From contig JBDTAC010000041.1 in the NCBI GenBank assembly GCA_039924845.1, positions 728 to 64,727 on the forward strand: a DNA stretch of 64,000 nt, written 5' to 3'. How positions within the stretch are numbered: position 1 is the first letter of the stretch; the number at the start of each line of letters is the position of its first letter. The position numbers and the translations under genes are program-made. The notes under the pieces are model-generated. The model was not told the DNA's origin and ran no database searches. It saw nothing but the letters and a program-made list of their open reading frames with translations. Positions 2-35,968 of the stretch are shown here, in pieces. Origin of the DNA: Bacteroidia bacterium. GTDB taxonomy: Bacteria > Bacteroidota > Bacteroidia > DATLTG01.

Positions 2-907
2 TCTTTATTAGAAAAAGCAGGTTTTACAGTTATCACCGAAAAGATAGCGCAAGAAGATTTAGCGAAAGCCATTAACGAAAATAATTATGTGGCACTTACG
101 GTTCGTAGTGCTACCAAAGTTCGTAAAGAATTAATAGATGCTTGTCCTAATTTAAAATTAATTGGCAGAGGCGGAGTAGGGATGGACAATATTGATGTGG
201 AATATGCGAAATCAAAAGGAATAAAAGTGGTAAATACTCCGGCTGCTTCTTCGCATTCGGTGGCAGAATTGGTGTTTGCCAATTTGTATGGAATGTCGCG
301 TTTTTTGTACGATGCAAATCGTCAAATGCCTGTGAATGGCGATACGCAGTTTGATGTATTGAAAAAAAAATACGCCAACGGAATAGAATTAAAAGGAAAA
401 ACATTGGGTATTATCGGTTTCGGTCGTATTGGACAAGCGGTTGCGAAAATTGCTTTGGGCAGCGGAATGAAGGTGTTGGCGTTTGATCCTTTTATGAAAG
501 AAGCAACGCTCGCATTGGAAATTCAAGGAGTTGATAAAATTTCTATTCACATTAAAACAATAAGTTTAGAAGATGTGTTGAAAAACAGCGATTTCATTAC
601 CTTGCATGTTCCGGGCGGAAAAATGATTACCGAAAAAGAAATTGCTTTGATGAAAGTCGGCGTGTGTTTGGTAAATGCTTCGCGTGGTGGTGTTATTGAT
701 GAAAATGATTTAATAAAAGCACTGAACAGCGGTAAAATAAAACATGCAGCTTTGGATGTTTTTGAAAACGAACCGCATCCTAAAAAAGAAATTTTGACTC
801 ATCCTAAAATAGCTTTAACTCCGCACATCGGTGCTGCCACGGAAGAAGCGCAAGCGCGAATTGGTATTGAGTTAGCCGAATTGATTACGGCAGTTTTCAG
901 CAATTGA
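2..907 (+). CDS. serA: D-3-phosphoglycerate dehydrogenase / D-2-hydroxyacid dehydrogenase family, 5' end runs off the window
   Basis: The frame is open from the window edge, so the listed start at 89 is an internal GTG. It has the Rossmann motif GIIGFGRIGQAVA and the ASRGGVIDE and HIGAAT motifs typical of this family. Confidence 0.8.
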   Translation, partial: SLLEKAGFTVITEKIAQEDLAKAINENNYVALTVRSATKVRKELIDACPNLKLIGRGGVGMDNIDVEYAKSKGIKVVNTPAASSHSVAELVFANLYGMSRFLYDANRQMPVNGDTQFDVLKKKYANGIELKGKTLGIIGFGRIGQAVAKIALGSGMKVLAFDPFMKEATLALEIQGVDKISIHIKTISLEDVLKNSDFITLHVPGGKMITEKEIALMKVGVCLVNASRGGVIDENDLIKALNSGKIKHAALDVFENEPHPKKEILTHPKIALTPHIGAATEEAQARIGIELAELITAVFSN

Positions 908-1011
908 AAAACAAAAATGATTTGCATATTTGAAGGTGTATAGATATACCAATTAAACGAATGTGTCATTCTGAAATGATTCATAATCTGCGCGCTGGAA
1001 ATTACTTACCT

Positions 1012-1041
1012 AAATCCTCTCCGAAGAAGAGGATTTTTTTA
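1012..1041 (+). terminator. Rho-independent terminator after serA
   Basis: A 9-bp stem AAATCCTCT/AGAGGATTT with a 7-nt loop runs into a T7 tract. Confidence 0.7.
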
Positions 1042-1074
1042 TTTAACGATTTATCTTTTTGAAATGACTTCTCA

Positions 1075-1095
1075 GGTGACAATCAGAGCACTACC
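1075..1095. repeat. Inter-cassette element copy A (GGTGACAATCAGAGCACTACC)
   Basis: It matches copy D at 6161-6181 in 19 of 21 positions. It lies beyond the last immunity ORF. Confidence 0.8.
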
Positions 1096-1130
1096 GACTT
1101 AAAGCTGTTTGTGAATTTTTAAAAAACGCA

Positions 1131-1161
1131 GGTGCAAATTGGAACACTACCGAACACTACC
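1131..1161. repeat. Inter-cassette element copy B (GGTGCAAATTGGAACACTACC) plus an extra tandem GAACACTACC
   Basis: The 18 nt GCAAATTGGAACACTACC are identical to 4535-4552. It lies 15 nt downstream of the immunity ORF stop at 1176. Confidence 0.8.
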
Positions 1162-1175
1162 CTCATCATCATCCT

Positions 1176-1430
1176 CTAACTTTTTTTCTTTGAAAAATTC
1201 AGTTTTTTATAAATGGCAATTCCTCCTATAATAACCCAAAATGAAAAAGTTCCTACTCGTCCTAAATATTTATACATAATAAACAACAAGCTAATGAAAC
1301 CAGGAGCCATGCCAGAATAACTATTAGCCATTTCCTGCGTATTGTGGTACATAAAAAAAATAATAAACCCAAATAATATTAAACCAATTCCAAAAAGGAT
1401 TCCCAAAATATGATTTAGTTTTTTTTTCAT
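1176..1430 (-). CDS. Small membrane protein, putative immunity protein for the 1444-2646 toxin
   Basis: This 84-aa ORF has an ATG start and 2-3 hydrophobic helices. It lies 13 nt downstream of the toxin ORF on the same strand. Confidence 0.5.
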   Translation of the reverse strand: MKKKLNHILGILFGIGLILFGFIIFFMYHNTQEMANSYSGMAPGFISLLFIMYKYLGRVGTFSFWVIIGGIAIYKKLNFSKKKS

Positions 1431-1443
1431 AATTCATCTGCGT

Positions 1444-2646
1444 TTAATAAAACTTTTTTTCTTCATTACGATAGTTTTCTTTAAAGTCGTAATCTTCTTT
1501 TTCTATGAATGATTCTTTTCCTTTATTGTTAATGTATTGTAGATAGTAAATGCCAATTATTTCCTGTTGTTGGTTAAGAATTGGTGAAATTAATGAACTT
1601 CCTGACCCTAAAGTTCTCAATCTACCTTTTGCTTGAAATTTAAATATTCTTTCATTTAACTCGTAAGGGTCAAATACTAACGGTGATTCTGCACCTGCTT
1701 TTCCTTCCAAATAATCTTCAATTTTATCTAAAACAATTCCTATAGCCCTGTCTGTTAATTCTTTTTGGATTTCTTGTTTTGTAAAAGTAGGTGAAATTGC
1801 CCAAAAATCTTTATTATCTTCATATATTGTATTATTCGCTACGTCTGTTGCCGCAGTTTTTGGAGGGTCAGTAGTTGTAGCAGTATTATTAGCAGTAGAA
1901 TTTTGTGTTTCATTATCTGTACTATGCAAGTCATATTTGCCTGTTTCCTTATTCCATGTTCCATAATCCCAATTACTTTCTTTTGCATTTGGGTCGTTGT
2001 GTATTGTTTTTCCGTTATCAGATGTAGCTATTCCATTGCCAGTATGTTCTGTGGTTCCTTTCGGGTCTTTTACATCTGTTCCTTTCGGGTCGCTATAAAC
2101 AATCGGATTATCACTAAACCCCACATAAGGGCTTTCCCATGCTTTTCCTTTCGGGTCTAAGCTCCACCACCTGCCACCCAAGCGGGTGTCCAGTTCTCTA
2201 AACTCGGTAGTATAGGCATTTCCGGTGCCGTATATTTCATCGTCTTTCTCAGAGCCTTTGTTAAATCCGAAGCGGTAGAGATTTGAGCTGAATGTTCTGC
2301 CGGGCATGAGCATCCCGCCAGGATAGTAATCATTGTAACTAATCACAAAAGCAGTGCTATCAGCATTCTTCCTATCACTCACTGTTGTATGAACATTGCC
2401 CAGATGGTCATCCAATTCGTATTCTTTCTTAAATATTTTTCTTGGGTAAAAACCATTGTTCAAGCCAATATCAATTGTCCAAAGGTTTACAGGACAAGAA
2501 ATGCAACTATACGTAGGAATACCGCTGGTCGGGAAGGTTTTCACTAAAATATTCGGTTTCCATTCTCCAAGACGCGCGCTGCCATAAAGTGGCACTTCTG
2601 TTTGAATATAATCGTAATTGCTGCCGTTGATTTTATTTTTACTCAC
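1444..2646 (-). CDS. Rhs/YD-repeat core-end protein with an unrecognised C-terminal toxin domain (cassette 4)
   Basis: It carries the core-end signature YRFGFNKGSEKDDEIYGTGNAYTTEFRELDTRLGGRWWSLDP...SPYVGFSDNPIVYSDPKGT. The tail is unrelated to the other cassettes. The listed start is GTG, not ATG. Confidence 0.75.
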   Translation of the reverse strand: MSKNKINGSNYDYIQTEVPLYGSARLGEWKPNILVKTFPTSGIPTYSCISCPVNLWTIDIGLNNGFYPRKIFKKEYELDDHLGNVHTTVSDRKNADSTAFVISYNDYYPGGMLMPGRTFSSNLYRFGFNKGSEKDDEIYGTGNAYTTEFRELDTRLGGRWWSLDPKGKAWESPYVGFSDNPIVYSDPKGTDVKDPKGTTEHTGNGIATSDNGKTIHNDPNAKESNWDYGTWNKETGKYDLHSTDNETQNSTANNTATTTDPPKTAATDVANNTIYEDNKDFWAISPTFTKQEIQKELTDRAIGIVLDKIEDYLEGKAGAESPLVFDPYELNERIFKFQAKGRLRTLGSGSSLISPILNQQQEIIGIYYLQYINNKGKESFIEKEDYDFKENYRNEEKKFY

Positions 2647-2653
2647 TGAAAAA

Positions 2654-3322
2654 TTATTTTTCTTCTTCTTTTTTCAAATCCTTTTTGCTAACCTGCTCCA
2701 TTGGAACATTTTTATTTACAGGGCGAACATGAACAGCGTGCCCTGTTGCTCGTGTGCCTTGTATTACGTAACCTGTACTGCCGCATCTGTTGCCATAAAT
2801 ACAGCGAACTGTATCGCCATCAATAGGAATAGTTTCGTTTTTTACTTCTTTAACTTTAGTGAAATAAAAATAATACCCTCCACAATCATTTAGCAAGGTG
2901 TCTCCTTTCAAGTAAAATGCTGCACAATCATTCACGCACCCAAATTTCCCAATGCTATCCACAGGTTCAATAACTTTTATTTTTGAAAGTTCTTTCGTTG
3001 TATATGTGTAAACTAATGGATCTTGTGAATCTAAATTTACGGTATCATATTTAGTTACTATCCAATGATCGAAATTGCACCACTCAATGAAACTAATATT
3101 ATTGTAATAGTATGTATGCTTTTCCACTGTTAATATAGATGCTTGAAGTTTGCGCGCCTGTTCCGGAGTTAAATTTTCATATCCTCTTGCATCTAACTTT
3201 ACACATTTCCATTTTCCGTATAGATATTTACTTGGAGCATTTTTTAATTGTTGTGCATAACAATTGTAACACAGTATAAGTGTAGAAAAAAGAAGTAATT
3301 TTTTACTGACCATTGTTTTCAT
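2654..3322 (-). CDS. Secreted (signal-peptide) protein, putative immunity to the lysozyme-type toxin
   Basis: The internal start MKTMVSKKLLLFSTLILCYNCYAQ reads as a signal peptide. The ORF overlaps the 3' end of toxin 3 on the same strand. An alternative start is at 3313. Confidence 0.55.
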   Translation of the reverse strand: MKTMVSKKLLLFSTLILCYNCYAQQLKNAPSKYLYGKWKCVKLDARGYENLTPEQARKLQASILTVEKHTYYYNNISFIEWCNFDHWIVTKYDTVNLDSQDPLVYTYTTKELSKIKVIEPVDSIGKFGCVNDCAAFYLKGDTLLNDCGGYYFYFTKVKEVKNETIPIDGDTVRCIYGNRCGSTGYVIQGTRATGHAVHVRPVNKNVPMEQVSKKDLKKEEEK

Positions 3323-4487
3323 ATATTCCATATAAAAAGATATTTTGTTCTGCAGTTCTCCTGTTTTGAAGTCCTTGTGAATACTCATTCCCTGAGGTAT
3401 TGACATCCATTTCTGATGCTGCTCCAGAAAAATCAGAATTATTTAGTTTAGCAATAAAATGCCTGCCTGCCGCAAGCGAATTATTTACGCCTACATTAAA
3501 CACATAACTTACAGTTGCATTAAACTGCTGCTGAGTAAGTTGGACATTAACGTAAGTATCAACTAAGATAATAGTTTTTTTTATATCAGTTGTAAATAAG
3601 GCATCTGCCTGATCTTGAGTAATACCTTGACTATAATCTTCTCCGCGCTGAACTACGTGTCCGTATCCTATTGTTATTTTACCCGTAGGAGCTTCACCTT
3701 GTTTCCAATATTTGTTTTTATCGTCATATTCTTGTAATGCAGGTCCTCCTTTAGGTCCTTGCTCATACGATTTGATAAAATCTTGTCCTTGAGTATTTAA
3801 CACTAAATCTTTTACATCTTTTTTAGAATCGGTTGTACTTGTCTTTTGATTTTCATCAGATAAACTTTTCTGATAATCTGCCATATCAGCAGCTTCTTTT
3901 TTCGGGTCAGCCCATTCCAAACCTTCTAAATCTTTTCCATCAATAACTCTGTCCATCGCAAAAGCATAAGGCGACCAACCCGCATATTTTCTCCTTAAAG
4001 GGTCTAAGCTCCAAAAGTGTATTAGGCGTGGGTCATCTTCTCTGAATTTAAAATCATAGGCGTTAGCATTGCCGTAAATATCATTGTCTTTGAGCTTTCC
4101 GTTGTATCCGAAGGTGTACAAGGAATCCTGATAATTCCTTCTCGGCATCAGCATACCGCCAGGATAGTAGTCATTGTAACTAATCACAAAAGCGGTACTA
4201 TCCGCATTCTTACGGTCTCTAACAATGGTGTGGACATTTCCTAAATGGTCATTCAGTTCGTATTCTTTCTTGAAGATTTTTCTTGGGAATAAACCATTGT
4301 TTAAACCAATATCAATTGTCCAAAGGTTTACAGGACAAGAAATGCAACTATACGTAGGAATACCACTGGTAGGGAACGTTTTCACTAAAATATTCGGTTT
4401 CCATTCGCCAAGACGTGAGCTTCCATAGAGTGGTACTTCTGTTTGTATGTAATCGTAATTGCTGCCGTTGATTTTATTTATCTTCAC
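3303..4487 (-). CDS. Rhs/YD core-end protein with a C-terminal GH24 (phage/T4-type) lysozyme domain (cassette 3)
   Basis: The core end reads YTFGYNGKLKDNDIYGNANAYDFKFREDDPRL..WSLDP. The tail has SYEQG...TIGYGH...ITQDQADALF...LTQQQFNATVSYVFNVG...GLQNRRTAEQNIF, the classic GH24 pattern. The listed start is GTG. Confidence 0.8.
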   Translation of the reverse strand: MKINKINGSNYDYIQTEVPLYGSSRLGEWKPNILVKTFPTSGIPTYSCISCPVNLWTIDIGLNNGLFPRKIFKKEYELNDHLGNVHTIVRDRKNADSTAFVISYNDYYPGGMLMPRRNYQDSLYTFGYNGKLKDNDIYGNANAYDFKFREDDPRLIHFWSLDPLRRKYAGWSPYAFAMDRVIDGKDLEGLEWADPKKEAADMADYQKSLSDENQKTSTTDSKKDVKDLVLNTQGQDFIKSYEQGPKGGPALQEYDDKNKYWKQGEAPTGKITIGYGHVVQRGEDYSQGITQDQADALFTTDIKKTIILVDTYVNVQLTQQQFNATVSYVFNVGVNNSLAAGRHFIAKLNNSDFSGAASEMDVNTSGNEYSQGLQNRRTAEQNIFLYGIYENNGQ

Positions 4488-4534
4488 TCAAAAATTATTT
4501 TTTGAAACCTCTTTATCTCTTTAAAAGTGTAAGC

Positions 4535-4552
4535 GCAAATTGGAACACTACC
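4535..4552. repeat. Inter-cassette element copy C (GCAAATTGGAACACTACC)
   Basis: It is identical to 1134-1151. It lies 7 nt downstream of the immunity stop at 4559 and upstream of toxin 3. Confidence 0.8.
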
Positions 4553-4558
4553 CACCCA

Positions 4559-5110
4559 CTACCTCAATTTTACTTTGTATTTAGTTAATACTTTATAAGG
4601 ATAAATTCGTTGCTTAAAACTATTAAATGTACGAGGTTTCCAATGAGTAAAAACAATAAGACCATCAGATATTTCTCCATAGTAAAAATTGTAACCACCA
4701 TAATCGTCTGTGGTATATATTTCAATAGTGATTTTTGTACCTTTTATTTTATAATAGCCAATAAATGCATAAGTATCACTATTGCTATTACATTCTTTAT
4801 TGGTCGGTTTGTGTTCGTAAGCATAACTTATCAATAATTTTCCATTATTAAAAAAACGGTATATCACATAAGATGAGTCCACAAAGTGTGATCCATAGTA
4901 TACGTCTGTATTAAGATTAAAATATACTGCATTCGTGTCTATCAAATTAGTATCAGCTAAATGATAGGGGTGTTTTGCAAAAGAGAAATTTGATTTTTTG
5001 GGACGTATTCCTCCATCGGGTAGAGTATAATAATGAGGTATCCATCCCATAATACTACAAGAGGTAAAATTAATAACTATAAAAAAAAAGAAAAACAAAC
5101 GCTTTGCCAT
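4559..5110 (-). CDS. Lipoprotein, putative immunity protein for the 5161-6084 toxin
   Basis: It has an ATG start and the lipobox-like N-terminus MAKRLFFFFFIVINFTSC. It lies 50 nt downstream of toxin 2. Confidence 0.55.
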   Translation of the reverse strand: MAKRLFFFFFIVINFTSCSIMGWIPHYYTLPDGGIRPKKSNFSFAKHPYHLADTNLIDTNAVYFNLNTDVYYGSHFVDSSYVIYRFFNNGKLLISYAYEHKPTNKECNSNSDTYAFIGYYKIKGTKITIEIYTTDDYGGYNFYYGEISDGLIVFTHWKPRTFNSFKQRIYPYKVLTKYKVKLR

Positions 5111-5160
5111 ATATTAATTTTTTTTAGCACTTACTGTTTATTGCCTGCGTATCAACGTAA

Positions 5161-6084
5161 TTAATCATAATGGAATAACTTCAAGTCTTTAGAGTTGTGA
5201 ATATAATTTTGCAACCAGCCTGATCCGTAACTATCAAATAAAAAGCCATTTACTCTCCCAAAAGTATCTGCTTTATTCAATGATTGTTGAAAAGGATCTT
5301 GATCGTAATACAAACTTGTCGCAGTTCTTTGCTGGCTATTAGAACCAAAATGCGTGCCTGTAAAATCCTGATACCCACCTTCAAATAAATTTCCTCCTAA
5401 ATTCGCTGAAAAAATAATTCCACCTGTCCAACCTTGATCTGTGCCACCTCTTGCTCCAACCAATCCTTGAGTTGTTGTTTTATTTGTTGCTGAATTATAG
5501 TTGAGTATTTGACCATACGTTCCAGAGCCACCGAAAGTATTGTTTAACGCAGATTTGGTATTGAAATTTAATGTATATTGTGGCAGTCCAATACCCTTAC
5601 CACCACCAAAAGTTGCATAAGCTGATGTACTGATGTCGAACTGTATAGCTGAACTGTTTCCTGAAGTACCTAAACCACCATTATAAACATTGACAGACAA
5701 ATCAAGTGTTGGCTGAAAAAAGTTAAAACGCTGTCCTATACTTGCTGTTGCTCCTGCATTAAAAGTTAATTTATTACCTCCAAAAGTCAACCCTAAACTT
5801 GCTTCAAATCTTGCCTGAGGATTACCAGCCGTATTACCTTTCGGGTCGCTAAACCATATAGGATTATTACTAAAACCCGAATACAGGCTTTCCCACGCTT
5901 TTGGGGTCGGGTCTAAGCTCCACCAACGTCCGCCTAGGCGTGGGTCAAGCATTCTAAACTCGGCAGTATAGGCATTTCCAGTTCCATAAATCTCGTTATC
6001 CTTCTCCATTCCGTTGAATCCGAATCTACAGCCTCCTGTGCAGCAGGCTGTAGATTCGGACATCGTAGCGGTATTGCGTGGCAT
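5161..6084 (-). CDS. Rhs/YD core-end protein with a Gly/Asn-rich unrecognised C-terminal domain (cassette 2)
   Basis: It carries CRFGFNGMEKDNEIYGTGNAYTAEFRMLDPRLGGRWWSLDP...NPIWFSDPKGN, then a Gly-rich, apparently beta-rich tail. Only about 20 aa precede the core-end motif. An alternative ATG is at 6063. Confidence 0.75.
   Translation of the reverse strand: MPRNTATMSESTACCTGGCRFGFNGMEKDNEIYGTGNAYTAEFRMLDPRLGGRWWSLDPTPKAWESLYSGFSNNPIWFSDPKGNTAGNPQARFEASLGLTFGGNKLTFNAGATASIGQRFNFFQPTLDLSVNVYNGGLGTSGNSSAIQFDISTSAYATFGGGKGIGLPQYTLNFNTKSALNNTFGGSGTYGQILNYNSATNKTTTQGLVGARGGTDQGWTGGIIFSANLGGNLFEGGYQDFTGTHFGSNSQQRTATSLYYDQDPFQQSLNKADTFGRVNGFLFDSYGSGWLQNYIHNSKDLKLFHYD
6019..6060 (-). other. Perfect 16-bp inverted repeat (42-nt hairpin) inside the first 22 codons of toxin 2
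   Basis: TCCGAATCTACAGCCT (6019-6034) pairs with AGGCTGTAGATTCGGA (6045-6060) around a 10-nt loop. It begins right after the internal ATG at 6063. Confidence 0.9.
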
Positions 6085-6160
6085 TGTTTCGTTTTGTGTA
6101 ATTCAAAAATACGGTTTATTTTGCCTTTGAAAAAATATTTTTTTGAAGCCTAAAAATGTA

Positions 6161-6181
6161 GGTGACAATCTGAACACTACC
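6161..6181. repeat. Inter-cassette element copy D (GGTGACAATCTGAACACTACC)
   Basis: It lies 15 nt downstream of the immunity stop at 6196 and upstream of toxin 2. It matches copy A in 19 of 21 positions. Confidence 0.8.
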
Positions 6182-6195
6182 AAAAATGACTATTG

Positions 6196-6603
6196 TTAAA
6201 TACAATCAATAAAAGTAGATATCCCGATACCTCTTAATACAAGCATAATTATATAAAATAAGCATATAATTATATTTATCTTAGCCGTCCAGTTTGTAAT
6301 TTTATGATAGTTTTTATTTCTCATTATGTATTTTAGAAATAGTTTATTTATGGAGTAAATTATAAATATCAAAACACCTGTTTCAGCAATTAATGCTATT
6401 GATTCATAAATAGCTGCTCCAGTTGAACCCCATATATCAATTCTCGAATTGTTATTCTTCCACATTAAATTAGCAGGAATAAATAAATCATTAAGATAAA
6501 CAGCTAACCACAGAAGAATGGGATAAGTTAATATTTGATACCCAAAATTATAAATACCATACAAGCCGTATAAAATATATTTTATATAATTATTGAACCT
6601 CAT
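6196..6603 (-). CDS. Polytopic membrane protein, putative immunity protein for the 6600-7556 toxin
   Basis: It has about 4 hydrophobic helices. The ATG at 6603 overlaps the toxin TGA stop as ATGA, which suggests translational coupling. Confidence 0.6.
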   Translation of the reverse strand: MRFNNYIKYILYGLYGIYNFGYQILTYPILLWLAVYLNDLFIPANLMWKNNNSRIDIWGSTGAAIYESIALIAETGVLIFIIYSINKLFLKYIMRNKNYHKITNWTAKINIIICLFYIIMLVLRGIGISTFIDCI

Positions 6604-7556
6604 TTGTTTGTAGCTGGTTTGCTGATGTGATTTTTGTTCCACTCTTTAAGAGTGTAGGTTTTACCACCATATTCGACACCTGTAAAATTTCCTTTAGAGT
6701 CAATATTTATTCTTACGTCAACAGTTCCAAGTTTCTTTGTGTTATCAAAATATAAACTTAAAGGATTTCCTTTAGCCCCCGAACCAGTTAACCAAACTGT
6801 TTGCCCTTTTGCATCACTTACCAATGCTTCGGTAGCGGGAAATTCTTTTCCTGATAAATCAACATAAGCAATCAAATAACCCGCTTTATCATTTTCCGCT
6901 AATATTACAGATGAATTTACTTCAATATTAGGAGCTGTCCCCAAAAGTGCAAGGTCGGGATTAGAACCCGAATAATGCGCTTCAACATCAGCTACATCAG
7001 AACCCGCATTTTTATAAAAAGTTTTGTTGTCTACTTTTCCTTTGTCTGTTGTGTGTGTTGCATTACCAACTGTTTTACCACTAGTTTTAGTATCGGAACT
7101 TGTTGGATGACCATTACCTATTACTGATTTTTTCGTAGGATCTACGGTATAAGTTTGACTAATACGCGATGTAACATTTTGTTCGGCAGAAAAGCCTCTC
7201 TTATCATCATCATAATCAAAGTATTTGAAAGCATCAGGTGGAACAAAAGACCTAACAGTAACAGCGAATGGAAATAAACCATCTGCATCTAAATAAAGAA
7301 TAGGATTAGAATAGCCATAAGAGTACGGAGACCAAAATGGAATTTTAGCTGCTAATTTATCCAAACTTAACCACCTGCCCAATCTCGCATCGTCCATTCT
7401 GTATTTGAAATCGTAGGCGTTTCCTATTCCACAAAGTTCGTTTGTTTTTTCCTGTCCGTTGAAGCCGAAACAATATGAATTTAGGTTTGATTTGTATCTG
7501 TTGTGTACAATTTTTTGTTGTTCATTTAGATTTTCATAGAAATCTACTTCGTCCAT
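6600..7556 (-). CDS. Rhs/YD core-end protein with an unrecognised C-terminal domain (cassette 1)
   Basis: It has an ATG start and carries YCFGFNGQEKTNELCGIGNAYDFKYRMDDARLGRWLSLDK...SPYSYGYSNPILYLDADGL, followed by a unique tail of about 220 aa. Confidence 0.75.
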   Translation of the reverse strand: MDEVDFYENLNEQQKIVHNRYKSNLNSYCFGFNGQEKTNELCGIGNAYDFKYRMDDARLGRWLSLDKLAAKIPFWSPYSYGYSNPILYLDADGLFPFAVTVRSFVPPDAFKYFDYDDDKRGFSAEQNVTSRISQTYTVDPTKKSVIGNGHPTSSDTKTSGKTVGNATHTTDKGKVDNKTFYKNAGSDVADVEAHYSGSNPDLALLGTAPNIEVNSSVILAENDKAGYLIAYVDLSGKEFPATEALVSDAKGQTVWLTGSGAKGNPLSLYFDNTKKLGTVDVRINIDSKGNFTGVEYGGKTYTLKEWNKNHISKPATNK

Positions 7557-7721
7557 TTTCGATTTTTATTGGTTTATATTCACTAACTTATTTATTGGCG
7601 AATATAATTAATTTTCAATTAATTTCTCATCTGCAAATTGAGGTATATCCCTAATACTCTAAAAAAAGAAGAGCTTCCTTTTTGAATATCCCTCCCCAAT
7701 TTATTATAAAGCAAGATTATT

Positions 7722-8036
7722 GTTTGATGGCGCATGTTACTCGTGTGATGGAGCATGTCATTTGTTTGATGGCGCATGTTAATTGTTTGATGGCACATGT
7801 TACTCGTGTGATGGCAGATGTTATTTGTTTGATGGCACATGTTATTTGTTTGATGGCAGATGTTACTCGTGTGATGGCGCATGTTATTTGTTTGATGGCA
7901 CATGTTATTTGTTTGATGGCACATGTTACTCGTGTGATGGAGCATGTTACTTGTGTGATGGCGCATGTACACTGTGTGATGGAGCATGTTATTTGTTTGA
8001 TGGAGCATGTACACCGTGTGATGGAGTATGTACATC
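7722..8036. repeat. Tandem repeat, 15 contiguous 21-bp units (GTKTGATGGMRCATGTWAYWY)
   Basis: The units were read directly and are in perfect 21-bp register with no spacers. Three overlapping ORFs (two plus, one minus) stay open across it. Confidence 0.95.
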
Positions 8037-8045
8037 GTTTAACAC

Positions 8046-8086
8046 AAAGATGCCTCCTTCGTTAATACGATAAAGGAAGCATCTTT
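8046..8086. other. Hairpin (14-bp stem with one mismatch) 25 nt downstream of the TonB-dependent receptor stop
   Basis: AAAGATGCCTCCTT (8046-8059) pairs with AAGGAAGCATCTTT (8073-8086). No U-tract follows on either strand. Confidence 0.8.
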
Positions 8087-8110
8087 ATAAAAAAAACAAT
8101 ATGAAACGTA

Positions 8111-10546
8111 TTATTTGCCTATCGGGAAAATCAGTTTAAAACCTACATTTCTGCCCATATTGTAAATACCTTGGCTTTGATTGGTTACGGTAACTATTCT
8201 GCCACCATAAGATAGGAAATAGTTTGCAAGATCTAAATGATCTGCATATCCTACATTGGTTAAATTAGTACAATTGATATACAATGAACAAATTACCCTG
8301 CCTGTTTTCGGGTTTACAAAATTGGTTCCTATACCTGCATTAAATAAAGTGTATGCGGCAGAAGGAATTTCTGTATAAAGTGCGCTGTAAATAGCATTTT
8401 GCGCCCAATATTTTGCTTGTCCTAACTTAATGTAGGTATCTTTTAATATGGAATTTGGTTTGTTATTCAAGTGAAGCTTCACTTCCGTAGTTATGTGCGT
8501 AGCAGGTATCCAAGGAATATGATCGGTTGAATCCGTTTGATTTGGCAGAAAGGAATAAATATACGTTAAGCCATTGTCTATTTCAATCCATTTTGTACTA
8601 ACAGGATGTATGTTGAAATACCCCGAAACTCCCGTAATGATAGCAACGTTGCTTGATACAAATTGGTAAACAGGAAGTCCGCCTGAAACAGAATCGGTAC
8701 GATCGCCAAATATGAAATTATTTATAATATTATAAAAACCATCGGCTTCAAAACTAAGGTCCTTCCCATTATTTCCATAGGCAATATCTAATTGATAGCC
8801 TTGTTCTGATTTTAAATTTAAGTTCCCTAACTGAACGGCATTGGAACCGATATTCTGACCATTGCTTGTTAATTCATTAATAGCAGGAGCTCGGTAACTC
8901 TTTGAGAAATTGAGTTTCAGATAATTATTATTTGGTAATTGGTAAGAAGCACCAACACTTCCGGATGGTCCGGTATACGTATTGTTAAATGGACTAAATT
9001 GTGTTTCTGCTCCCGGAGTTCCAGCCGAAACTTGCTGTTGTTCGGGAGTACCACTGTTTGTCAGATACATTCCTTGTCCAATAAAATTACTCCAATCGTA
9101 TCTCAATCCTCCACTTACTGTGAGATTTTTAAAATCTTTTTCTAAAATGGCATAAGCACCCGCTTGAAAATCGGTATAGTTCGGTATTTCATAATTACCA
9201 ATATAAGGCGCAGGTGGTTCCGCCAGTTGGTGCTCGAATTCGTAAGTCCCGTTTATGCCAGTGGTCAGTTTCAATCCTGATTTTTCTCCTATAATTTGAT
9301 ATTTCAAGGAATAAGGAATATCATATACCTGCATATTTCCTTCTCCAACACTTCCTGAATCAATGTCGTGGTGAACACTTTGGGTGAAACCAATATCTAT
9401 CCCAACTCTTCCAGTGCCTGCGTTAATACTATTTTGCCACCAAATTTGATTTTCATCCAAAATTTTATCTCCAGCAATGGTAGGATTGTATGCTAAGAAG
9501 TTGGATTTGTTTGGATATATCTGTCCATTTTGAGGAGCATCGAACATAAATTGTCCAGTTGCGCTGTCGCGATTACCATCCGGCACTTGAATTCGTCTGT
9601 GGAGCGCGCTTACTGTAAGTCGCGTATATCCCCAAGATTTATTCAGTCCAATTGTTAATCGCGCATTCGACTGTTGCCAAGCAGTTCCCCAAATATATCC
9701 ATCTTTTGGATTCCAGTAATCATGCGTTTCTTCGTTACTTGCTCTTAGGTTCCACACAAAATCATTATTATTTCCTCCAATATTTTCGGAGGTTCCGATG
9801 TATCCATCATTGGTATGATATTCTGTAAGCACGCTACCTTGCACCGTTCCGCTTTCTGCAAAAGGTTGCGATTTAAAGCTAATCACTCCCGCTTCGGCAC
9901 TTGCCCCATATTGTAAAGAAGCAGGTCCTCGAATAATTTCAGCATCATAAACAGCATAAGGATCTATCAAAATACCGTGGTCGTCTCCCCATTGAAAATC
10001 TTCTTGTCTTTCTCCATCCATCAACACTAAAACACGGTCAAATCCCAAGCCGTTAATTTGTGGCTTTGTGGTCCCAGAACCTTCCGTTGTTTCATTTACA
10101 CCAGGCTGAGAAGCCACGGCATCAATGGCAGTACTCGAAGTTTGTTGCAACATTACATCGTGAGATATCAGCGAAACAGGTACGGGAGAACGTTGCGTAT
10201 TGGTAACGTTACCCAATGCTGTAATCACCACTTCGTTAGCGGTACAGGCGGAAATACACATAGAACAAGTACAAGTGGTACTGTCCGTTATCATAACTTG
10301 TTGAGTTATGGTAGCATATCCCAAAATTTTTACTTCCATTTCATAAGTTCCTTTAGGGATAGGACTTATTCTAAATTCTCCATTTGAATTGGTAGTAGCA
10401 CCTAAATTAAGTTGCGGAATATACACCACGGCTCCCACTATTGTTTGATGGCTCAAAGAGTCTATAACAGTACCACTTAAAGACTGAGCCATTGCAACAT
10501 TGATTAACATCAATAAAGATGAAATCAATAAAAATATTTTTTTCAT
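8111..10546 (-). CDS. TonB-dependent receptor with an N-terminal carboxypeptidase-regulatory-like domain
   Basis: The signal peptide is MKKIFLLISSLLMLINVAMAQ. A CarboxypepD_reg-like segment (GTVIDS...NGEFRISPIPKGTYEMEVKILGY) is followed by a plug region and a long beta-barrel ending in an aromatic-rich C-terminus. Confidence 0.85.
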   Translation of the reverse strand: MKKIFLLISSLLMLINVAMAQSLSGTVIDSLSHQTIVGAVVYIPQLNLGATTNSNGEFRISPIPKGTYEMEVKILGYATITQQVMITDSTTCTCSMCISACTANEVVITALGNVTNTQRSPVPVSLISHDVMLQQTSSTAIDAVASQPGVNETTEGSGTTKPQINGLGFDRVLVLMDGERQEDFQWGDDHGILIDPYAVYDAEIIRGPASLQYGASAEAGVISFKSQPFAESGTVQGSVLTEYHTNDGYIGTSENIGGNNNDFVWNLRASNEETHDYWNPKDGYIWGTAWQQSNARLTIGLNKSWGYTRLTVSALHRRIQVPDGNRDSATGQFMFDAPQNGQIYPNKSNFLAYNPTIAGDKILDENQIWWQNSINAGTGRVGIDIGFTQSVHHDIDSGSVGEGNMQVYDIPYSLKYQIIGEKSGLKLTTGINGTYEFEHQLAEPPAPYIGNYEIPNYTDFQAGAYAILEKDFKNLTVSGGLRYDWSNFIGQGMYLTNSGTPEQQQVSAGTPGAETQFSPFNNTYTGPSGSVGASYQLPNNNYLKLNFSKSYRAPAINELTSNGQNIGSNAVQLGNLNLKSEQGYQLDIAYGNNGKDLSFEADGFYNIINNFIFGDRTDSVSGGLPVYQFVSSNVAIITGVSGYFNIHPVSTKWIEIDNGLTYIYSFLPNQTDSTDHIPWIPATHITTEVKLHLNNKPNSILKDTYIKLGQAKYWAQNAIYSALYTEIPSAAYTLFNAGIGTNFVNPKTGRVICSLYINCTNLTNVGYADHLDLANYFLSYGGRIVTVTNQSQGIYNMGRNVGFKLIFPIGK

Positions 10547-10610
10547 GAAATGATAATACTGTAATAAATAAAACTCTTTTGTTATTCTGAACATTTGAAG
10601 AATCTATTTT

Positions 10611-10629
10611 ACAAAGATGCTTCCTTCGT
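10611..10629. repeat. Second copy of the 19-mer ACAAAGATGCYTCCTTCGT in the receptor leader
   Basis: It matches 8044-8062 in 18 of 19 positions. Its core AAAGATGCTTCCTT is the perfect reverse complement of 8073-8086. Confidence 0.85.
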
Positions 10630-10669
10630 CTGCAAGACGAGTAACCTGTTTTTAGAAACTAAAATCTTA

Positions 10670-11059
10670 TTAAGCAGTAAATGTAGGCGGATGGAAAATT
10701 TCTAAAATCGCTTTCGCAGATTTTTTTTCAGTATAAATAGAAATTATTTTTGAGGAAAACTTAGGTAAGAAATAAGCTGTTAAATTATTTTTTTTCAGAC
10801 AAAAAAGTGTTTCTAAGTTATCGGAATTAATTGTTGTCGGAGAATTATTTTTTTTATTTTCAGATGCAGCCTTTTTCAATTGTTTCGCCATGTAACACTT
10901 GCCATTGCAGCACATCTTGGTGTTCGATTTATTTTCACAGAGATTGGCAGCAATGTATTTTTCGTGCATCAAATAATCTACAACGGGCACAAAAGGCTTT
11001 ATCAAAGCGAGGGCGTATATCAATAATAAATTAATCGCAATTATTTTTTTGATGCACAT
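10670..11059 (-). CDS. Small N-terminally anchored Cys-motif protein (hypothetical)
   Basis: It has an ATG start, one TM helix, and the motif DYLMHEKYIAANLCENKSNTKMCCNGKCYM. It lies directly upstream of the receptor on the same strand. Confidence 0.5.
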   Translation of the reverse strand: MCIKKIIAINLLLIYALALIKPFVPVVDYLMHEKYIAANLCENKSNTKMCCNGKCYMAKQLKKAASENKKNNSPTTINSDNLETLFCLKKNNLTAYFLPKFSSKIISIYTEKKSAKAILEIFHPPTFTA

Positions 11060-11213
11060 ACGGCAAAGGTATTTGTTTTTAGGAAGCGTTTTTTATTTAT
11101 TGTGTTCCTTCGTTTTTCTAATTGGAATTTAATTTTTAAAAAATAATTTTCAAACAAACGGAAACACCTATCTTTGTTAAACAAATCAAAAAAATATTTT
11201 TTCAATACTGCCC

Positions 11214-11744
11214 ATGAAAACACGTATTTCTCTTTTGAAAAAATATTTTTCGGCGAGCCTTTTTTTACTTCTGTTTTTTAGCGTTTCCGGCATCGCACAA
11301 ATAAAATATGCGCAAGTGGGTGTTAACGGTTTGACTTGCTCCGCCTGTACGCGCTCGGTAGAAATGAGCATTCGTAAATTAGATTTTGTGAAAGATGTGC
11401 AAATGGATTTGAAAAATACGGAAGGGAAGATTATTTTTAAGGAAGGTAAAACCGTGTCGATGGAAAAAATTGCGCAAGCCGTTTACGATGCCGGATTTTC
11501 TGTTCGTTATTTAAAAGCTGCTTTTGTTTTTGATCATCTTTCTATTTCGGAAGGTTTTACATACACGTTCGAAAACTCTTTTTATCAGTTTGTTGGCGTG
11601 GAAACTAAAAAGTTAAATGGCGAAGTAATTTTGACTTTTCTCGGAAAAAAATACTTGGATAGAAAAGGATATAAAAAATGGGAAGATACCTTGAAACCTT
11701 CTTCCGCAAACGCGAATAAAAGCGTTTATTACGTTACTACATGA
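11214..11744 (+). CDS. Secreted heavy-metal-associated (HMA) domain protein
   Basis: A signal peptide is followed by the GLTCSACTRSVE metal-binding CxxC motif in a ferredoxin-like HMA context. Confidence 0.7.
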   Translation: MKTRISLLKKYFSASLFLLLFFSVSGIAQIKYAQVGVNGLTCSACTRSVEMSIRKLDFVKDVQMDLKNTEGKIIFKEGKTVSMEKIAQAVYDAGFSVRYLKAAFVFDHLSISEGFTYTFENSFYQFVGVETKKLNGEVILTFLGKKYLDRKGYKKWEDTLKPSSANANKSVYYVTT

Positions 11745-12736
11745 AACGAATTATTTTTGTTTTCGCCTTATTTTTATTTTCTCTCGGAGCAGAAGCGCAA
11801 GAACTTTTTCCGATTAATGAGCCTGCAAGTACTATCCCGAAAGGAGTTTTTGGTATAAGAGCTTTTGGTGAAACATACGAAGAATTAGGCATTTGGAAAC
11901 GAATGGGCGCGCTACGATTGATGTACGGACTTACTTCCAAACTTACTATTGAAGCCACCGGAGTTATTTCCAATCATCACGATAGTATTTTGCCCGCTAA
12001 TTTGGTTACGCACACACATTACGGCACGCAAACTACTTATTTCACAGGTGCTATTCCACGCGGAATTGTGTATCCGTATCGTTTTCACGATGACATTAAT
12101 TTATATGCAAAATATCGCTTTCTCAGTTTAGACGGGCAAAACGAACATTTTAGAGCTTCGGCTTACGGTGAATATTCCTTTGTAAATGTGGCGCACGACG
12201 AAGCCGAACCAGATTTATTAGACGATACAAAAGGTTTTGGAAGCGGGTTGATTTTAACGTATTTGAAAAATCGCTTTGCAGCGTCTATCACAACGGGAAT
12301 AATACTTCCGGGCAATTATTCGGAAAACGATTACAACTCGATTTACACGGTGCATTGGAATACGTACGAAATTGTTTATGGCAAAGCGGCGGTGTATAAT
12401 TTATCCTTGGGTTATTTGCTTTATCCTAAGGATTATACGGATTACAGTGAGGCAAACTGGAATATTTATTGCGAATTTCTTGGAACATCCTATCAAGGCG
12501 CGAAAGTAATTGAGGATGGAACTTCCATTGATGTGCAAACAACGGCGCTCAAAGCAGGTAATTACATTAATATTTGTCCGGGTGTTCAGAAAATTTTTGA
12601 TTCCAATTTACGAATTGATTTTTCGGTGCAATGGCCTATGATTAGTAAATCGTACGTGTATTATTATCCCGTTTACATGATTGGCTTACAACGCTATTTT
12701 TATCCGAAATCCCATAAAAAAAGAGCGAATTTATAA
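11741..12736 (+). CDS. Putative outer-membrane beta-barrel protein (hypothetical)
   Basis: It has a signal peptide ending AEAQ and alternating aromatic/hydrophobic strands. Its ATG overlaps the HMA gene stop as ATGA. Confidence 0.5.
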   Translation: MKRIIFVFALFLFSLGAEAQELFPINEPASTIPKGVFGIRAFGETYEELGIWKRMGALRLMYGLTSKLTIEATGVISNHHDSILPANLVTHTHYGTQTTYFTGAIPRGIVYPYRFHDDINLYAKYRFLSLDGQNEHFRASAYGEYSFVNVAHDEAEPDLLDDTKGFGSGLILTYLKNRFAASITTGIILPGNYSENDYNSIYTVHWNTYEIVYGKAAVYNLSLGYLLYPKDYTDYSEANWNIYCEFLGTSYQGAKVIEDGTSIDVQTTALKAGNYINICPGVQKIFDSNLRIDFSVQWPMISKSYVYYYPVYMIGLQRYFYPKSHKKRANL

Positions 12737-12737
12737 T

Positions 12738-12755
12738 CAAAAAATTATTTTTTTG
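12738..12755. repeat. A-tract/T-tract palindrome (CAAAAAATTATTTTTTTG), representative copy between convergent genes
   Basis: The central TTA at 12745-12747 is the stop codon of the minus-strand gene. The plus-strand gene stops 2 nt before the motif. Confidence 0.9.
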
Positions 12756-14610
12756 AAACGGAAATTGCTACACGCCTATTTTTTGCTCTTCCGGCTGGGT
12801 TATCACTTCCGTCAGGATTCGTATTTGGAGCAATAGGGTCGGAACTTCCTGCGCCAGTAAGCAAAATTTGTTTTTTAGGAATTCCTTTTTCTGTAAAATA
12901 ACGCTCCACCATTTTAGCACGTTTCAAGGAAAGAGCTTTATTAAGAGCTGTCGTTCCTTTCGAATCGCAATAGCCTGTTAAAGTGAGTTGTGATAGTGTA
13001 TTTTCCTTTAAATATTTATATACTGAGTCCATTCCTGGATAATAAATAGTTTTAACAGTAGATTTATCAAAATCGAAATAAACAAAATCAGTATTCGAAA
13101 AAATATTTTTTCCACCGCCGGATAATTTACTTGCAATAGAATCTGCTTTTGTTTTTTCTGCCAATGCAATTGAAGCAATAGAATCATTGGCTTTGGCTGT
13201 CGAATCTTTTTTCAAAGCCATTAATGAGGCTTTCGCTAAAGAATCGACTTTGTTAGTTTCAAAATCAATCATGTAAATATCCAAACCTCCATATGTATCG
13301 TGTCTTTCGGTAGAATAATAGCCATGAGTTCCAGCAGCATTCATCGTAAAAAAAATATCGTTTCCGCCTTCATTAATTGGATAACCCATATTCTGAGGTT
13401 TTCCCCATTTCCCATTTTCTAAGGTAGATTTAAAAACATCAAAACCTCCGATGCTGTTGTGTCCTTGCGATGAAAAATAAAGTGTTTTTCCGTCGGCGGT
13501 AACAAACGGACTTTCTTCGTCCAGCGCGGTATTAATTTTCGGTCCAAGATTTTGAAGTGGACTCCACGTCCCGTCAGCTTGCAGTGAAGATTGATAAATA
13601 TCTTTTCCGCCAAAACCTCCTGCGCGCTCGCTCACTACATACAAGATTTTTTCGTCTGCCGAAAAGCAAGCACTTGGATTGTAGGAGTTTTTAGTATTGA
13701 TATTTTTATCCAATCGTTGCGGTTTTTGCCATGCATCATTTTTCAATTCAGAAATCCAAATACTGTAATTCTTATAGATTAACAACTTTGTGCCATCAGC
13801 AGAAATGGCAATGGATGCATCATGGAAATTAGTGTTAATAGCTTTTCCTATATTTTTTGCTCTTGAAAAAAATATTTTTTGAAAACCTCTTGGCGCTGGA
13901 AATTTATCCGCAGTTGAATCCAAACGTAACGAAGCGTTCCATTCTTCACCAGAAATTTTTTTGGAGGAATAAATATCTTCATAATACAAACCATCATCTG
14001 CAATTTTTCCGCCTGTTCCTTTTCGTTTTGATGTAAAAATAAGGATAGATTCATTCGCAGAAATAACAGGCGCATAATCCGGAAAACTTGAATTAATACC
14101 AGCTCCCAAATTTTCGATTCGTACGTTAACTGGGTGTTGCATCAACGCAATTCCGTTTTTACAAGCTGCAATATTGGAATCTATTTCTGCGATATCTTCA
14201 GTAGCTTTCGGTTTTATAAACGAAATTAATTTTTGGTAATTTGTAATGGCTTCTTGAAAATTATTTTCGTGTTGATTGGCTAAAGCTAAATAATAATAAA
14301 GATCAGGAATCGTATCGCTTTGGATGTATTTTTTTGCATTTTCTAAAATATGTAATGCTTTTTCATTCTCTGTTTCGGAATAATAATAACAAATTCCCGC
14401 ATGAAAATTGGTAAGGGCATTGGTTGAGTCTGTTTGCAATAATTCTGCATAATAAGGAAATGCTCTGCTGTATTCTTCAAACAAGAAATGATTTTCTGCT
14501 TTACGCAAAAGTCTTTTTTCTTTTCGCGTAAGCGTATTGGCATTCACATTAAGTGATAAGCCATAAATGCAGAGAGAAATAATTGTGAGGTTGAAAAAAT
14601 AATTTTTCAA
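12745..14610 (-). CDS. OmpA-family protein with N-terminal TPR and TolB-like PD40 beta-propeller repeats
   Basis: It has repeated PD40-like motifs (FTSKR..GG.DIY) and a C-terminal OmpA-like domain (GYCDSKGTTALNKALSLKRA...NRRVAI). The start is TTG and lies inside an A/T palindrome. Confidence 0.8.
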   Translation of the reverse strand: MKNYFFNLTIISLCIYGLSLNVNANTLTRKEKRLLRKAENHFLFEEYSRAFPYYAELLQTDSTNALTNFHAGICYYYSETENEKALHILENAKKYIQSDTIPDLYYYLALANQHENNFQEAITNYQKLISFIKPKATEDIAEIDSNIAACKNGIALMQHPVNVRIENLGAGINSSFPDYAPVISANESILIFTSKRKGTGGKIADDGLYYEDIYSSKKISGEEWNASLRLDSTADKFPAPRGFQKIFFSRAKNIGKAINTNFHDASIAISADGTKLLIYKNYSIWISELKNDAWQKPQRLDKNINTKNSYNPSACFSADEKILYVVSERAGGFGGKDIYQSSLQADGTWSPLQNLGPKINTALDEESPFVTADGKTLYFSSQGHNSIGGFDVFKSTLENGKWGKPQNMGYPINEGGNDIFFTMNAAGTHGYYSTERHDTYGGLDIYMIDFETNKVDSLAKASLMALKKDSTAKANDSIASIALAEKTKADSIASKLSGGGKNIFSNTDFVYFDFDKSTVKTIYYPGMDSVYKYLKENTLSQLTLTGYCDSKGTTALNKALSLKRAKMVERYFTEKGIPKKQILLTGAGSSDPIAPNTNPDGSDNPAGRAKNRRVAISVSKK

Positions 14611-14616
14611 AATGAT

Positions 14617-34887: not shown

Positions 34888-35034
34888 CTGTTAGTTCAAA
34901 TCAAAGATACAGTTTTTCCTATGGTCTTAAATAAACTTCAACAGAATTTTCTGCGGAGGAGAAGTGAGTACTTTTAAAACGGAATTGCCTTGTTAAACAA
35001 GCGTCCTGAGAGGATAATAGCATTTATTAATGAG

Positions 35035-35307
35035 CTGTGAGTATCTTAGTCGCAGCTGTGAGTGTCTCAGTATGAACTGTGAGTGAGGCAGTATGAACTG
35101 TGAGTGTCTCAGTCTAAGCTGTGAGTATGACACTCAGAACTCTGACTAAGGTAGTATGAACTGAGAGTATCTCAGTATGAGCTGTGAGTGAGACACTCAG
35201 AACTCCGACTAAGGCAGTATGAGTTGCGACTAAGAAAGTATAAGCTGTGAGTAGGGCACTCGCAGTTCATTATTTGTTGGTATGAGTTGATACATAGCAA
35301 GAATGAA
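35035..35307. repeat. Non-coding array of 13 units in exact 21-nt register (CTGTGAGT-N-CAGTATGAR types)
   Basis: Unit starts were read at 35035, 35056, 35077 and so on to 35287. Stops occur in all plus frames, and no ORF of 60 aa or more is present. Confidence 0.9.
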
Positions 35308-35418
35308 CTGATACCATTTATTTATTAGTTCTTTTTTAGTAAATTTTAACACATGCTAAACAATAATGAGTTAATACTTGACGTTGTTAAACACGTTTAA
35401 CCCTAAAAACAAAAGAAG

Positions 35419-35835: not shown

Positions 35836-35853
35836 ATTCCATTTAATTTTCAG

Positions 35854-35885
35854 AAAACCACACCAAATATTGGTGTGGTTTTTTG
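35854..35885 (+). terminator. Rho-independent terminator
   Basis: AACCACACCA / TGGTGTGGTT form a 10-bp stem with a 5-nt loop, followed by a T-run. Confidence 0.85.
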
Positions 35886-35968
35886 TTAGTATGAAATAGT
35901 TTTTTAGTCTATTTTATAAAATATTTCTTTGAGAATATATCTTCTTCAGAAGTTTTAAATAAACAAAC

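Follow-up and report, generated by a model that had tools for sequence, protein, structure and literature searches.

An array of four orphan Rhs toxin-tip and immunity cassettes, three of them ending in an IS1-type repeat, in a Bacteroidia bacterium

Introduction

How do the toxin tips of Rhs proteins come to stand in a row, each followed by a small partner gene, in a stretch of chromosome that holds no Rhs shell to carry them? This question is raised by 64,000 nucleotides (nt) of a Bacteroidia bacterium (GTDB lineage Bacteria; Bacteroidota; Bacteroidia; DATLTG01; NCBI GenBank assembly GCA_039924845.1, contig JBDTAC010000041.1, positions 728 to 64,727 of the forward strand), a stretch that we call the window and number from its first letter. 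A preliminary description, made from the letters of the window alone, had read four co-directional minus-strand open reading frames (ORFs) at 1176-7556 as orphan, displaced tips of Rhs/YD proteins. We report that each of these ORFs holds only the core that closes an Rhs shell and a toxin domain, in agreement with that reading, and that the immunity genes of three cassettes are followed by a repeat of the type found at the ends of the insertion sequence (IS) IS1, a feature that the preliminary description had overlooked. We consider it highly probable that the array is a set of four orphan cassettes, each a Rhs toxin tip with its immunity gene, that stand apart from any full-length rhs gene, kept as a silent store and immunity reservoir, and assembled or relocated by IS1-type events.

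Four cassettes that retain the closing end of an Rhs shell

The four ORFs were found where they had been reported. Together with the small ORF that follows each of them they form the array below, in which cassettes are numbered T1/I1 to T4/I4 from the 3' end and everything lies on the minus strand (window 1176-7556; aa, amino acids; TM, transmembrane).

T4, 6600-7556, minus strand: Rhs core at aa ~26-94, ending LDADGLF, and a 225-aa beta-rich C-terminal domain of unnamed family
I4, 6196-6603, minus strand: putative immunity protein of 135 aa with multiple TM segments, also 135 aa in the Logan gene call on an independent assembly
T3, 5161-6084, minus strand: Rhs core at aa 19-83, ending SDPKG, and a Gly-rich 229-aa domain
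I3, 4559-5110, minus strand: putative lipoprotein immunity protein of 183 aa, with an N-terminal hydrophobic leader and an FTSC lipobox
T2, 3303-4487, minus strand: ~125 aa of YD-shell end, degenerate core and GH24 lysozyme domain; GTG start only
I2, 2654-3313, minus strand: putative immunity protein of 219 aa with a signal peptide, starting MVSKKLLLFSTLILCYNCYAQ (read directly)
T1, 1444-2646, minus strand: ~125 aa of YD-shell end, core ending SDPKG, linker and toxin domain; GTG start
I1, 1176-1430, minus strand: putative immunity protein of 84 aa with TM helices

When seven full-length relatives of 2,224-3,567 aa, taken from a genome scan, were compared with the 64 kb by tblastn, the matches were confined to T1-T4 (E 1e-6 to 1e-30), and of the relatives only the ~60-185 residues that immediately precede the toxin domain aligned. 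Each of the four ORFs thus aligns to the shell-closing end of an Rhs protein, as had been proposed. Shell-only queries, made from the same relatives minus their last 450 residues, gave zero matches across the window. No PF05593 RHS repeat and no DUF6443 domain was found in T1-T4 by a Pfam search, and a search of the four proteins for a hydrophobic leader returned none, nor any signal peptide or other export signal, so that the earlier statements that no YD shell lies upstream and that no secretion or trafficking N-terminus is present are upheld. The hidden Markov model (HMM) of the core, TIGR03696 (Rhs_assc_core, NCBIfam), gave a more divided result: T4 scored 33.6 bits, over the curated cutoff of 32.5, T3 scored 31.5 bits, just under it, T1 scored a weak 19.3 bits and T2 gave no match. 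The core signature ascribed to all four ORFs is therefore borne out by the model for T4, with T3 and T1 below the cutoff, and not for T2, in which RLIHFW stands where RLGRW is expected and the DPxG is missing.

In-frame stop codons lie 3-28 codons upstream of the Rhs homology in T1-T4, and 203-225 codons are open downstream of it. T4 and T3 have ATG starts; T1 and T2 have GTG alone, 3-9 codons after an in-frame stop, the GTG of T1 being 7 nt past the stop of I2. The presence of two ATG starts, which had been set against the orphan reading, is correct as observed and is no oddity, ATG being the rule among the orphans of relatives: many of their ~300-aa orphan proteins begin with ATG just before YYPGGM or RFGFNG. 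At the DNA level the YD-shell ends of T1 and T2 are 88% identical over 300 nt, and the core-coding segments of T1 (2081-2250) and T3 (5837-6006) are 77% identical over 170 nt; several places within the array could therefore serve homologous recombination as substrates for deletion or fusion.

Downstream of the core the cassettes have nothing in common. BLASTP gave no match below E 0.4 among the four C-termini or among the four small ORFs, which are therefore mutually unrelated, as already noted for the toxins, and the small ORFs carry the TM helices, lipobox or signal peptide that had been reported for them. Two of their starts were corrected, that of I4 to the ATG at 6603, which gives the ATGA overlap (4 nt) with the stop of T4 described earlier for the first toxin, and that of I2 to the ATG at 3313, which overlaps the stop of T2 by 11 nt. 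The gaps between toxin and immunity ORF in the other two cassettes are 13 nt (T1/I1) and 50 nt (T3/I3).

Full-length and orphan relatives in other Bacteroidota

The best match to the array in the genome scan was only 46% identical, and 68 related loci (numbered with the prefix L below) were examined for their ORF context. The same core closes proteins of ~2,200-3,800 aa in related Bacteroidota, composed of a signal peptide, DUF6443 and RHS repeats, and rows of ~300-aa orphan cassettes come next. In 20 of the 68 loci the matching stretch is the end of an ORF that has over 1,000 codons upstream of it; about 90 others begin no more than 150 codons from a stop, frequently as members of a row behind the long gene. 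The full-length relatives begin with a Sec-type signal peptide followed by DUF6443, not with PAAR/VgrG-type domains. The preliminary description was right that no type VI secretion system (T6SS) genes are seen in the window, and the type IX secretion system (T9SS), which it had named as the only secretion machinery, is present; with relatives of the Sec-type and DUF6443 kind, however, the lack of T6SS genes poses no problem. Most Bacteroidetes RHS toxins are listed as exported by Sec ('T2SS', type II secretion system) by Zhang et al. 2012 (PMC3482391).

The locus L002, in a complete genome of 3.9 Mb, contains a 3,859-aa DUF6443/RHS protein, an immunity gene and five orphan pairs (316-362 + 134-221 aa), after which come a tyrosine recombinase gene and, on the opposite strand, another two orphans; the recombinase divides the plus-strand from the minus-strand orphans (L002 12113-17200). 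All five orphans have the leader MRHTPQNSFSKLVL, two of them with single substitutions, and ~300 nt of conserved upstream sequence. The L002 spacers (1946-2400, 3753-4077, 5762-6074, 7667-8052 and 9584-10000) are conserved over 300-450 nt; each opens with an IS1-type repeat (GGTAATGTATCAAATGTGTTGATT) and closes with the leader MRHTPQNSFSKLVL, fused in every case to the core at the same residue, and they hold an HU-like gene (..LIGFGSFEV..) that is complete in two and internally deleted in three.

Orphans without a shell within 10 kb were found in at least 10 loci, and in addition in L084, L085 and L089, which were found via T4 homologues, so that separation from the long gene is not unusual. 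In L084 (1-9000), detached T4-like orphans lie amid four tyrosine recombinase genes, a ParE toxin gene and an IS110 transposase gene. The arrangements in L084 and L002 suggest other mobile-element routes for orphan cassettes.

An IS1-type repeat behind the immunity genes

A repeat of 22-33 nt (GGTAGTGTTCCAATTTGCACCT) follows I4, I3 and I1 and is missing after I2. Its consensus is GGTAGTGTTC(C/A)(A/G)ATT(T/G)(G/T)C(A/G)C(C/T)T, and it is always on the cassette strand. The repeat pattern has four exact matches against 0.05 expected, all of them in the array and none elsewhere in the window. The copies are as follows.

6149-6181, minus strand: IS1-type end copy (GGTAGTGTTCAGATTGTCACCT...), 14 nt past the I4 stop
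4520-4563, minus strand: IS1-type end copy; full copy 4552-4520 and a partial tip GGTAGTG at 4563-4557 that holds the I3 stop codon
1074-1161, minus strand: IS1-type left-end module after I1; half copy of 10 nt (1161-1152), then a full copy (1151-1119) and a second one (1095-1074)

The second copy after I1 lies exactly 56 nt downstream of the full copy. The ends of E. coli IS1A, GGTGATGCTGCCAACTTACTGAT and GGTAATGACTCCAACTTATTGAT, have the tip GGTAnTG..TCCAAnTT in common with the window repeat. Partial copies of the tip, of 7-16 nt, stand directly before full copies in the window (1161 and 4563), in L013 and in L034 (5439), and fit insertion into a resident end, of which they are not proof; no clear target duplications were seen in the window. 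None of the listed short-range inverted repeats spans the repeat copies and no internal symmetry was apparent by inspection, so the repeat is not attC-like. A possible inner-repeat relic upstream of T4 (TCAATTTGCA, ~7641) is a 10-mer only and is not claimed.

None of the first 70 loci matched the repeat, and the view that it is specific to this lineage was dropped after a metagenome pattern scan and a scan with a position weight matrix (PWM). The metagenome scan returned ten matches, two of which, L071 and L079, are unrelated rhs loci of 47-50% GC (35% in the window) in which the repeat comes just past immunity-like ORFs; the other eight, with no Rhs core, transposase or likeness beyond the 22-mer, were treated as chance. 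The PWM scan of ~1 Mb of fetched loci gave 27 hits against 4.3 in shuffles, the strong ones all on the cassette strand, with hits in L002, L013, L017, L033, L034, L071, L079, L081 and the window. Mostly the repeat begins 0-35 nt past the stop of an ORF of 85-300 codons, and on its inner side stands a transposase or a truncated rhs fragment.

A PF03400 transposase is present in four of the loci (L071, L034, L088 and L081). In L071 the repeat lies 175 nt upstream of an IS1-family transposase ORF (PF03400, E 2e-21) that is 33% identical to the E. coli IS1 transposase over its length; repeat, terminator hairpin, inner partial copy and transposase follow one another, and the transposase stop abuts a 5'-truncated rhs fragment with an orphan core. 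In L034, with three subtypes, and in L088, a JGI (Joint Genome Institute) metagenome locus with an IS1-type element behind a full-length rhs gene, an immunity stop is likewise followed, in turn, by the outer repeat, the hairpin, the inner repeat, the transposase and an rhs fragment. L081, on the Emticicia oligotrophica plasmid pEMTOL03 (NC_018743.1 29931-31772), has a looser version with no hairpin noted: the repeat comes ~140 nt after an annotated SMI1/KNR4 (SUKH-type) immunity gene and is duplicated (262 and 431, a 169-nt IS1 left end), an IS1 family transposase is next, and after it comes a protein of 1,846 aa that is uncharacterised and has a signal peptide. Candidate right ends of the IS1-like elements, ending ..TACC and lying beyond the transposase stop (L071 3080, L081 1257), were read by eye only.

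L034 (Wandonia haliotis, 700-15350) is a 15-kb rhs orphan array in which four transposase genes or gene fragments of the IS1 family were found. They fall into three subtypes, and each has its own matching outer and inner repeats, in one common slot and orientation. The L034 ORF 6223-6570 begins as a truncated transposase N-terminus and continues into DNA whose other frame codes for a fragment of an Rhs core. In L079, near-identical modules of ~150 nt (7289-7440 and 8738-8890) consist of the repeat, a copy 56 nt on and a terminator hairpin, with no transposase; the first comes after the DUF7716 immunity gene that goes with a full-length rhs, the second after two further small ORFs.

These comparisons also bear on whether the GGTAGTG... 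repeat is transposon-derived at all, or is instead a signal of the cassette itself, such as a regulator site or the 3' end of a transcript, that IS1-like elements target or mimic. Its place 0-35 nt after stops, its single orientation and the lack of an inverted partner anywhere would suit such a signal, as would its occurrence without any transposase in the window, L079 and L002, and the recurrence of the fixed 56-nt pair with terminator hairpin in the window and twice in L079 (L034 also has the 56-nt pair). We nevertheless regard this explanation as unlikely, given that the repeat is outermost upstream of IS1 transposase genes in four loci, that its GGTAnTG..TCCAA tip is common with E. coli IS1, and that within each element the outer repeat co-varies with the inner copy beside the transposase ATG, which argues for the repeats as probable binding sites of the cognate transposase. 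The repeat is thus of the IS1 type and sits at the ends of cassettes, and an IS1 role in the assembly of the array appears most likely from these sequence comparisons.

Toxin and immunity domains and the possibility of independent expression

The toxin domain of T2 was identified as a GH24 phage-type lysozyme (PF00959, aa 266-380, E 3e-24), with the Glu/Asp/Thr catalytic motif intact as read from the sequence. A periplasmic location of I2, predicted from its signal peptide, would fit a lysozyme toxin and a periplasmic target. No Pfam family was found for the T4 and T3 toxin domains, and PDB sequence searches with the T1, T3 and T4 domains gave no match. The T4 domain has 24 homologues, every one a short 'RHS repeat-associated' protein of 138-384 aa, and T4 retains all invariant residues of the family (22 of the 24 homologues aligned). 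In the AlphaFold2 (AF2) model of T4 the beta-rich C-terminal domain reaches a predicted local distance difference test (pLDDT) value of 85-90, and the 93-residue core piece stays below 50 and is predicted to be disordered; the top PDB match in a fold search was 3c5p, a Bacillus protein of unknown function. A single homologue was found for the C-terminal domain of T3. For the T1 domain, 15 relatives were found in a set of 1.84 billion representatives; they include a 2,522-aa protein with the domain at its extreme C-terminus, as expected for a real polymorphic toxin tip. Of the toxin domains that the array contributes, those of T4 and T3 belong to no named family and that of T1 is rare.

The short ORFs might also be expressed in their own right, either as toxin-antitoxin (TA)-like modules inside the producer or as free-standing effectors. 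Several features point in this direction: the ATG starts of T4 and T3, a TAnnTTTG (Bacteroidetes -7 box) 27 nt before the T3 ATG, which as one plausible site in a scan is weak evidence, the T4/I4 and T2/I2 overlaps, which hint at translational coupling, the conserved leader and upstream region of the L002 orphans, and the fact that the homologues of the T4 domain are all short proteins; in addition, orphan Rhs modules of Salmonella have been reported to act as TA modules (PMC7043789). A sigma-70 promoter scan gave fewer hits than shuffles, the model being uninformative for Bacteroidota. On the other hand, T1 and T2 have no ATG and start in mid-repeat of the shell, none of the four has an export signal, the core that they retain is predicted to be disordered on its own, and a cytoplasmic lysozyme without export cannot reach its substrate. 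The 5' end of T3 is moreover covered by a strong hairpin, a palindrome at 6019-6060 (minus strand) with a 20-bp perfect stem in codons 9-22, exactly at the join to the Rhs core (RFGFNG), and a folding energy of -21.4 kcal/mol (z = -7.8), which may be the scar of a fold-back junction or may block translation. Taken with these points, independent expression as the explanation of the array seems decidedly improbable.

Surroundings of the array and its assembly

The array lies between a TonB-dependent receptor gene (8111-10594) and a convergent 2-hydroxyacid dehydrogenase gene (89-907). As had been reported, what precedes T4 is a tandem repeat and then the receptor gene, and the array is not downstream of a full-length rhs gene. 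Before T4 there are 160 nt of AT-rich spacer, then the tandem repeat, a hairpin and the receptor gene, and the borders are marked by these features.

7719-8010, no strand assigned: tandem repeat, 21-nt unit x ~14, between the terminator of the TonB receptor gene and T4; upstream border of the array
8031-8103, just after the TonB receptor stop: hairpin with the sole weak Rfam matches, read as the receptor terminator
1012-1036, no strand assigned: terminator-like hairpin that closes the array, common to the convergent dehydrogenase gene

The unit of the tandem repeat is CCATCA[A/C]AC[A/G]A.TAACATG[C/T]GC, with a super-period of 63 nt; it occurs once in the window and has no counterpart in any fetched related locus. 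Rfam and tRNA searches returned nothing relevant to the array, and no recombinase turned up in the scan of the flanks, which took in 30 of 44 ORFs with a length of 150 aa or more. The T9SS genes of the window comprise PorP/SprF, PorU, PorV, GldD and cargo with a C-terminal domain (CTD), and the rest looks like ordinary Bacteroidota chromosome. The T9SS parts (GldD, PorP/SprF, a PorU-like C25 peptidase and PorV) and two cargo proteins with CHU_C/Por_Secre_tail sorting domains lie at 33706-38221, 38951-39583 and 50504-56925, with no evident relation to the Rhs cassettes.

An independent short-read assembly, made from one sequencing run, reproduces window positions 7616-4335 at 100% and 20546-7933 at 99.97%, so that the only stretch without such support is 7617-7932, inside the tandem repeat, where both short-read contigs break. 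That the array is in truth the tail of a full-length rhs locus, wrongly joined to the TonB receptor gene across this repeat, would be allowed by the break and is nonetheless most improbable, since the in-frame stop 28 codons upstream of the T4 core, together with 60 nt before the T4 ATG that are AT-rich and non-coding in the independent contig too, rules out, for both assemblies, that T4 closes a long gene in frame, since the contig of the receptor gene extends 178 nt into the same tandem repeat, and since complete genomes also hold detached arrays.

How the array may have formed and what it may do

The reading of the array as a detached, silent store of toxin tips with their immunity genes, put together or moved by IS1-type events, has to be weighed against several observations. 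A tblastn search with the transposase of L071 detected no transposase gene in the window, and the PWM detected no copy of the repeat in inverted, right-end orientation, either there or in any fetched locus; it is accordingly by comparison with other loci that the link to an IS is drawn. Most related loci, several detached arrays among them, lack the repeat, so IS1 involvement is not general. The degenerate core of T2 escaped the TIGR03696 search, and a protein-database search with the shell end returned no close long protein carrying the NGSNYDYIQTEVPLYGS end. Finally, the ATG starts of T3 and T4 and the -7 box before T3 make some independent expression possible. All of these weigh against the reading, which we nevertheless hold to be the best explanation.

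According to this explanation, cassettes would have been trimmed, stacked and brought to an ectopic site by IS1-type events, for instance insertion, adjacent deletion or recombination between copies in direct repeat, and the transposase genes would have been lost later. The tips would not be deliverable alone, because they have no shell, signal peptide or DUF6443, and would serve as silent spares, one of which could be joined, by homologous recombination through the common core, to a full-length rhs gene at another place in the genome. The retained piece of shell and core, the last 65-185 residues, would act as a homology handle that also carries the self-cleavage motif, T1 and T2 offering a longer handle. 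The small ORFs would protect against these four toxins when kin or competitors deliver them. Recombination of an orphan onto a full-length rhs gene has been demonstrated experimentally in Salmonella (PMC3967940).

Relation to known systems and significance

An orphan rhs-CT/immunity array is a known type of locus, standard in contact-warfare loci, and the one described here is a further example. It resembles the enterobacterial orphan rhs-CT/rhsI modules (Koskiniemi et al. 2014, PMC3967940, for Salmonella Typhimurium LT2) and the Rhs orphan arrays of bee-gut bacteria (PMC5727410) in that it consists of 5'-truncated core fragments arranged head to tail, each unit with a differing toxin domain and a small immunity gene; those orphans are thought to be an immunity store and a recombination reserve (PMC3967940, PMC5727410). 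In contrast to them, it has no full-length gene upstream, lying instead between TonB receptor and dehydrogenase genes, its parent is of the Bacteroidota signal peptide/DUF6443 type rather than linked to a T6SS through PAAR/VgrG, and an IS1-type repeat stands at three of the four cassette ends. The stand-alone cassettes of polymorphic-toxin loci are alike in that one active toxin is accompanied by several silent cassettes with immunity genes, at a median active to silent ratio of about 1:3 (Zhang, Aravind et al. 2012, PMC3482391), but that survey, in which 'transposase' appears once in the text, describes no IS1-type ends at cassette borders. Orphan arrays of contact-dependent inhibition (CDI) systems with intervening transposases have been taken as a sign of transposition-driven remodelling (2016, PMC4927057); they too are tandem toxin/immunity pairs, although built on a CdiA scaffold rather than Rhs, and no IS family or fixed slot by the immunity gene is described for them, whereas here there are solo ends only.

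With the IS1 family the window repeat has the terminal GGTAnTG..TCCAAnTT tip in common, and the loci of relatives carry PF03400 transposases; in contrast to IS1, the Bacteroidota elements have a long left end composed of outer repeat, terminator and inner repeat. Direct IS repeats classically build and amplify passenger arrays in IS1-flanked units such as Tn9 or the r-determinant of R100. The rAID-1 elements (recombinase-associated acquired interbacterial defence clusters) of Bacteroidales are reportedly arrays of orphan immunity genes, some with toxin remnants, with conserved repeats between them and a tyrosine recombinase adjacent; the present array differs in its full-length toxin domains, in a repeat that is IS1-like and not attC-like, and in having no recombinase in the array or in the scanned flanks. 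An association of IS and rhs has long been known from the E. coli Rhs elements, in which H-rpt (ISAs1-family) insertions lie downstream of core extensions, but there the IS family and the phylum are others, and we know of no fixed H-rpt slot right after an immunity gene. In a limited literature search, no paper was found that links IS1 elements to Rhs orphans in Bacteroidota.

The truncation, stacking and relocation of orphan cassettes are usually explained by 'recombination' alone. In this array, as in no fewer than six further Bacteroidota loci from different families, the cassette border is an IS1-family end within a few bases of the immunity stop, and such ends point, for Bacteroidota, to an agent of toxin-cassette truncation and relocation that can be put to the test; the string GGTAGTGT..CAA... 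is also usable as a sequence tag for such cassettes in metagenomes. A bolder proposal, to which we attach little likelihood, is that a clade of Bacteroidota IS1-family elements has specialised for polymorphic-toxin loci, its left end (outer repeat, terminator, inner repeat) docking directly after immunity genes and its transposase, acting in cis or in trans, stacking, trimming and moving whole cassettes. If this were true, the solo ends in the window would be not dead scars but live handles for cassette exchange by a DDE transposase, following an integron-like logic.

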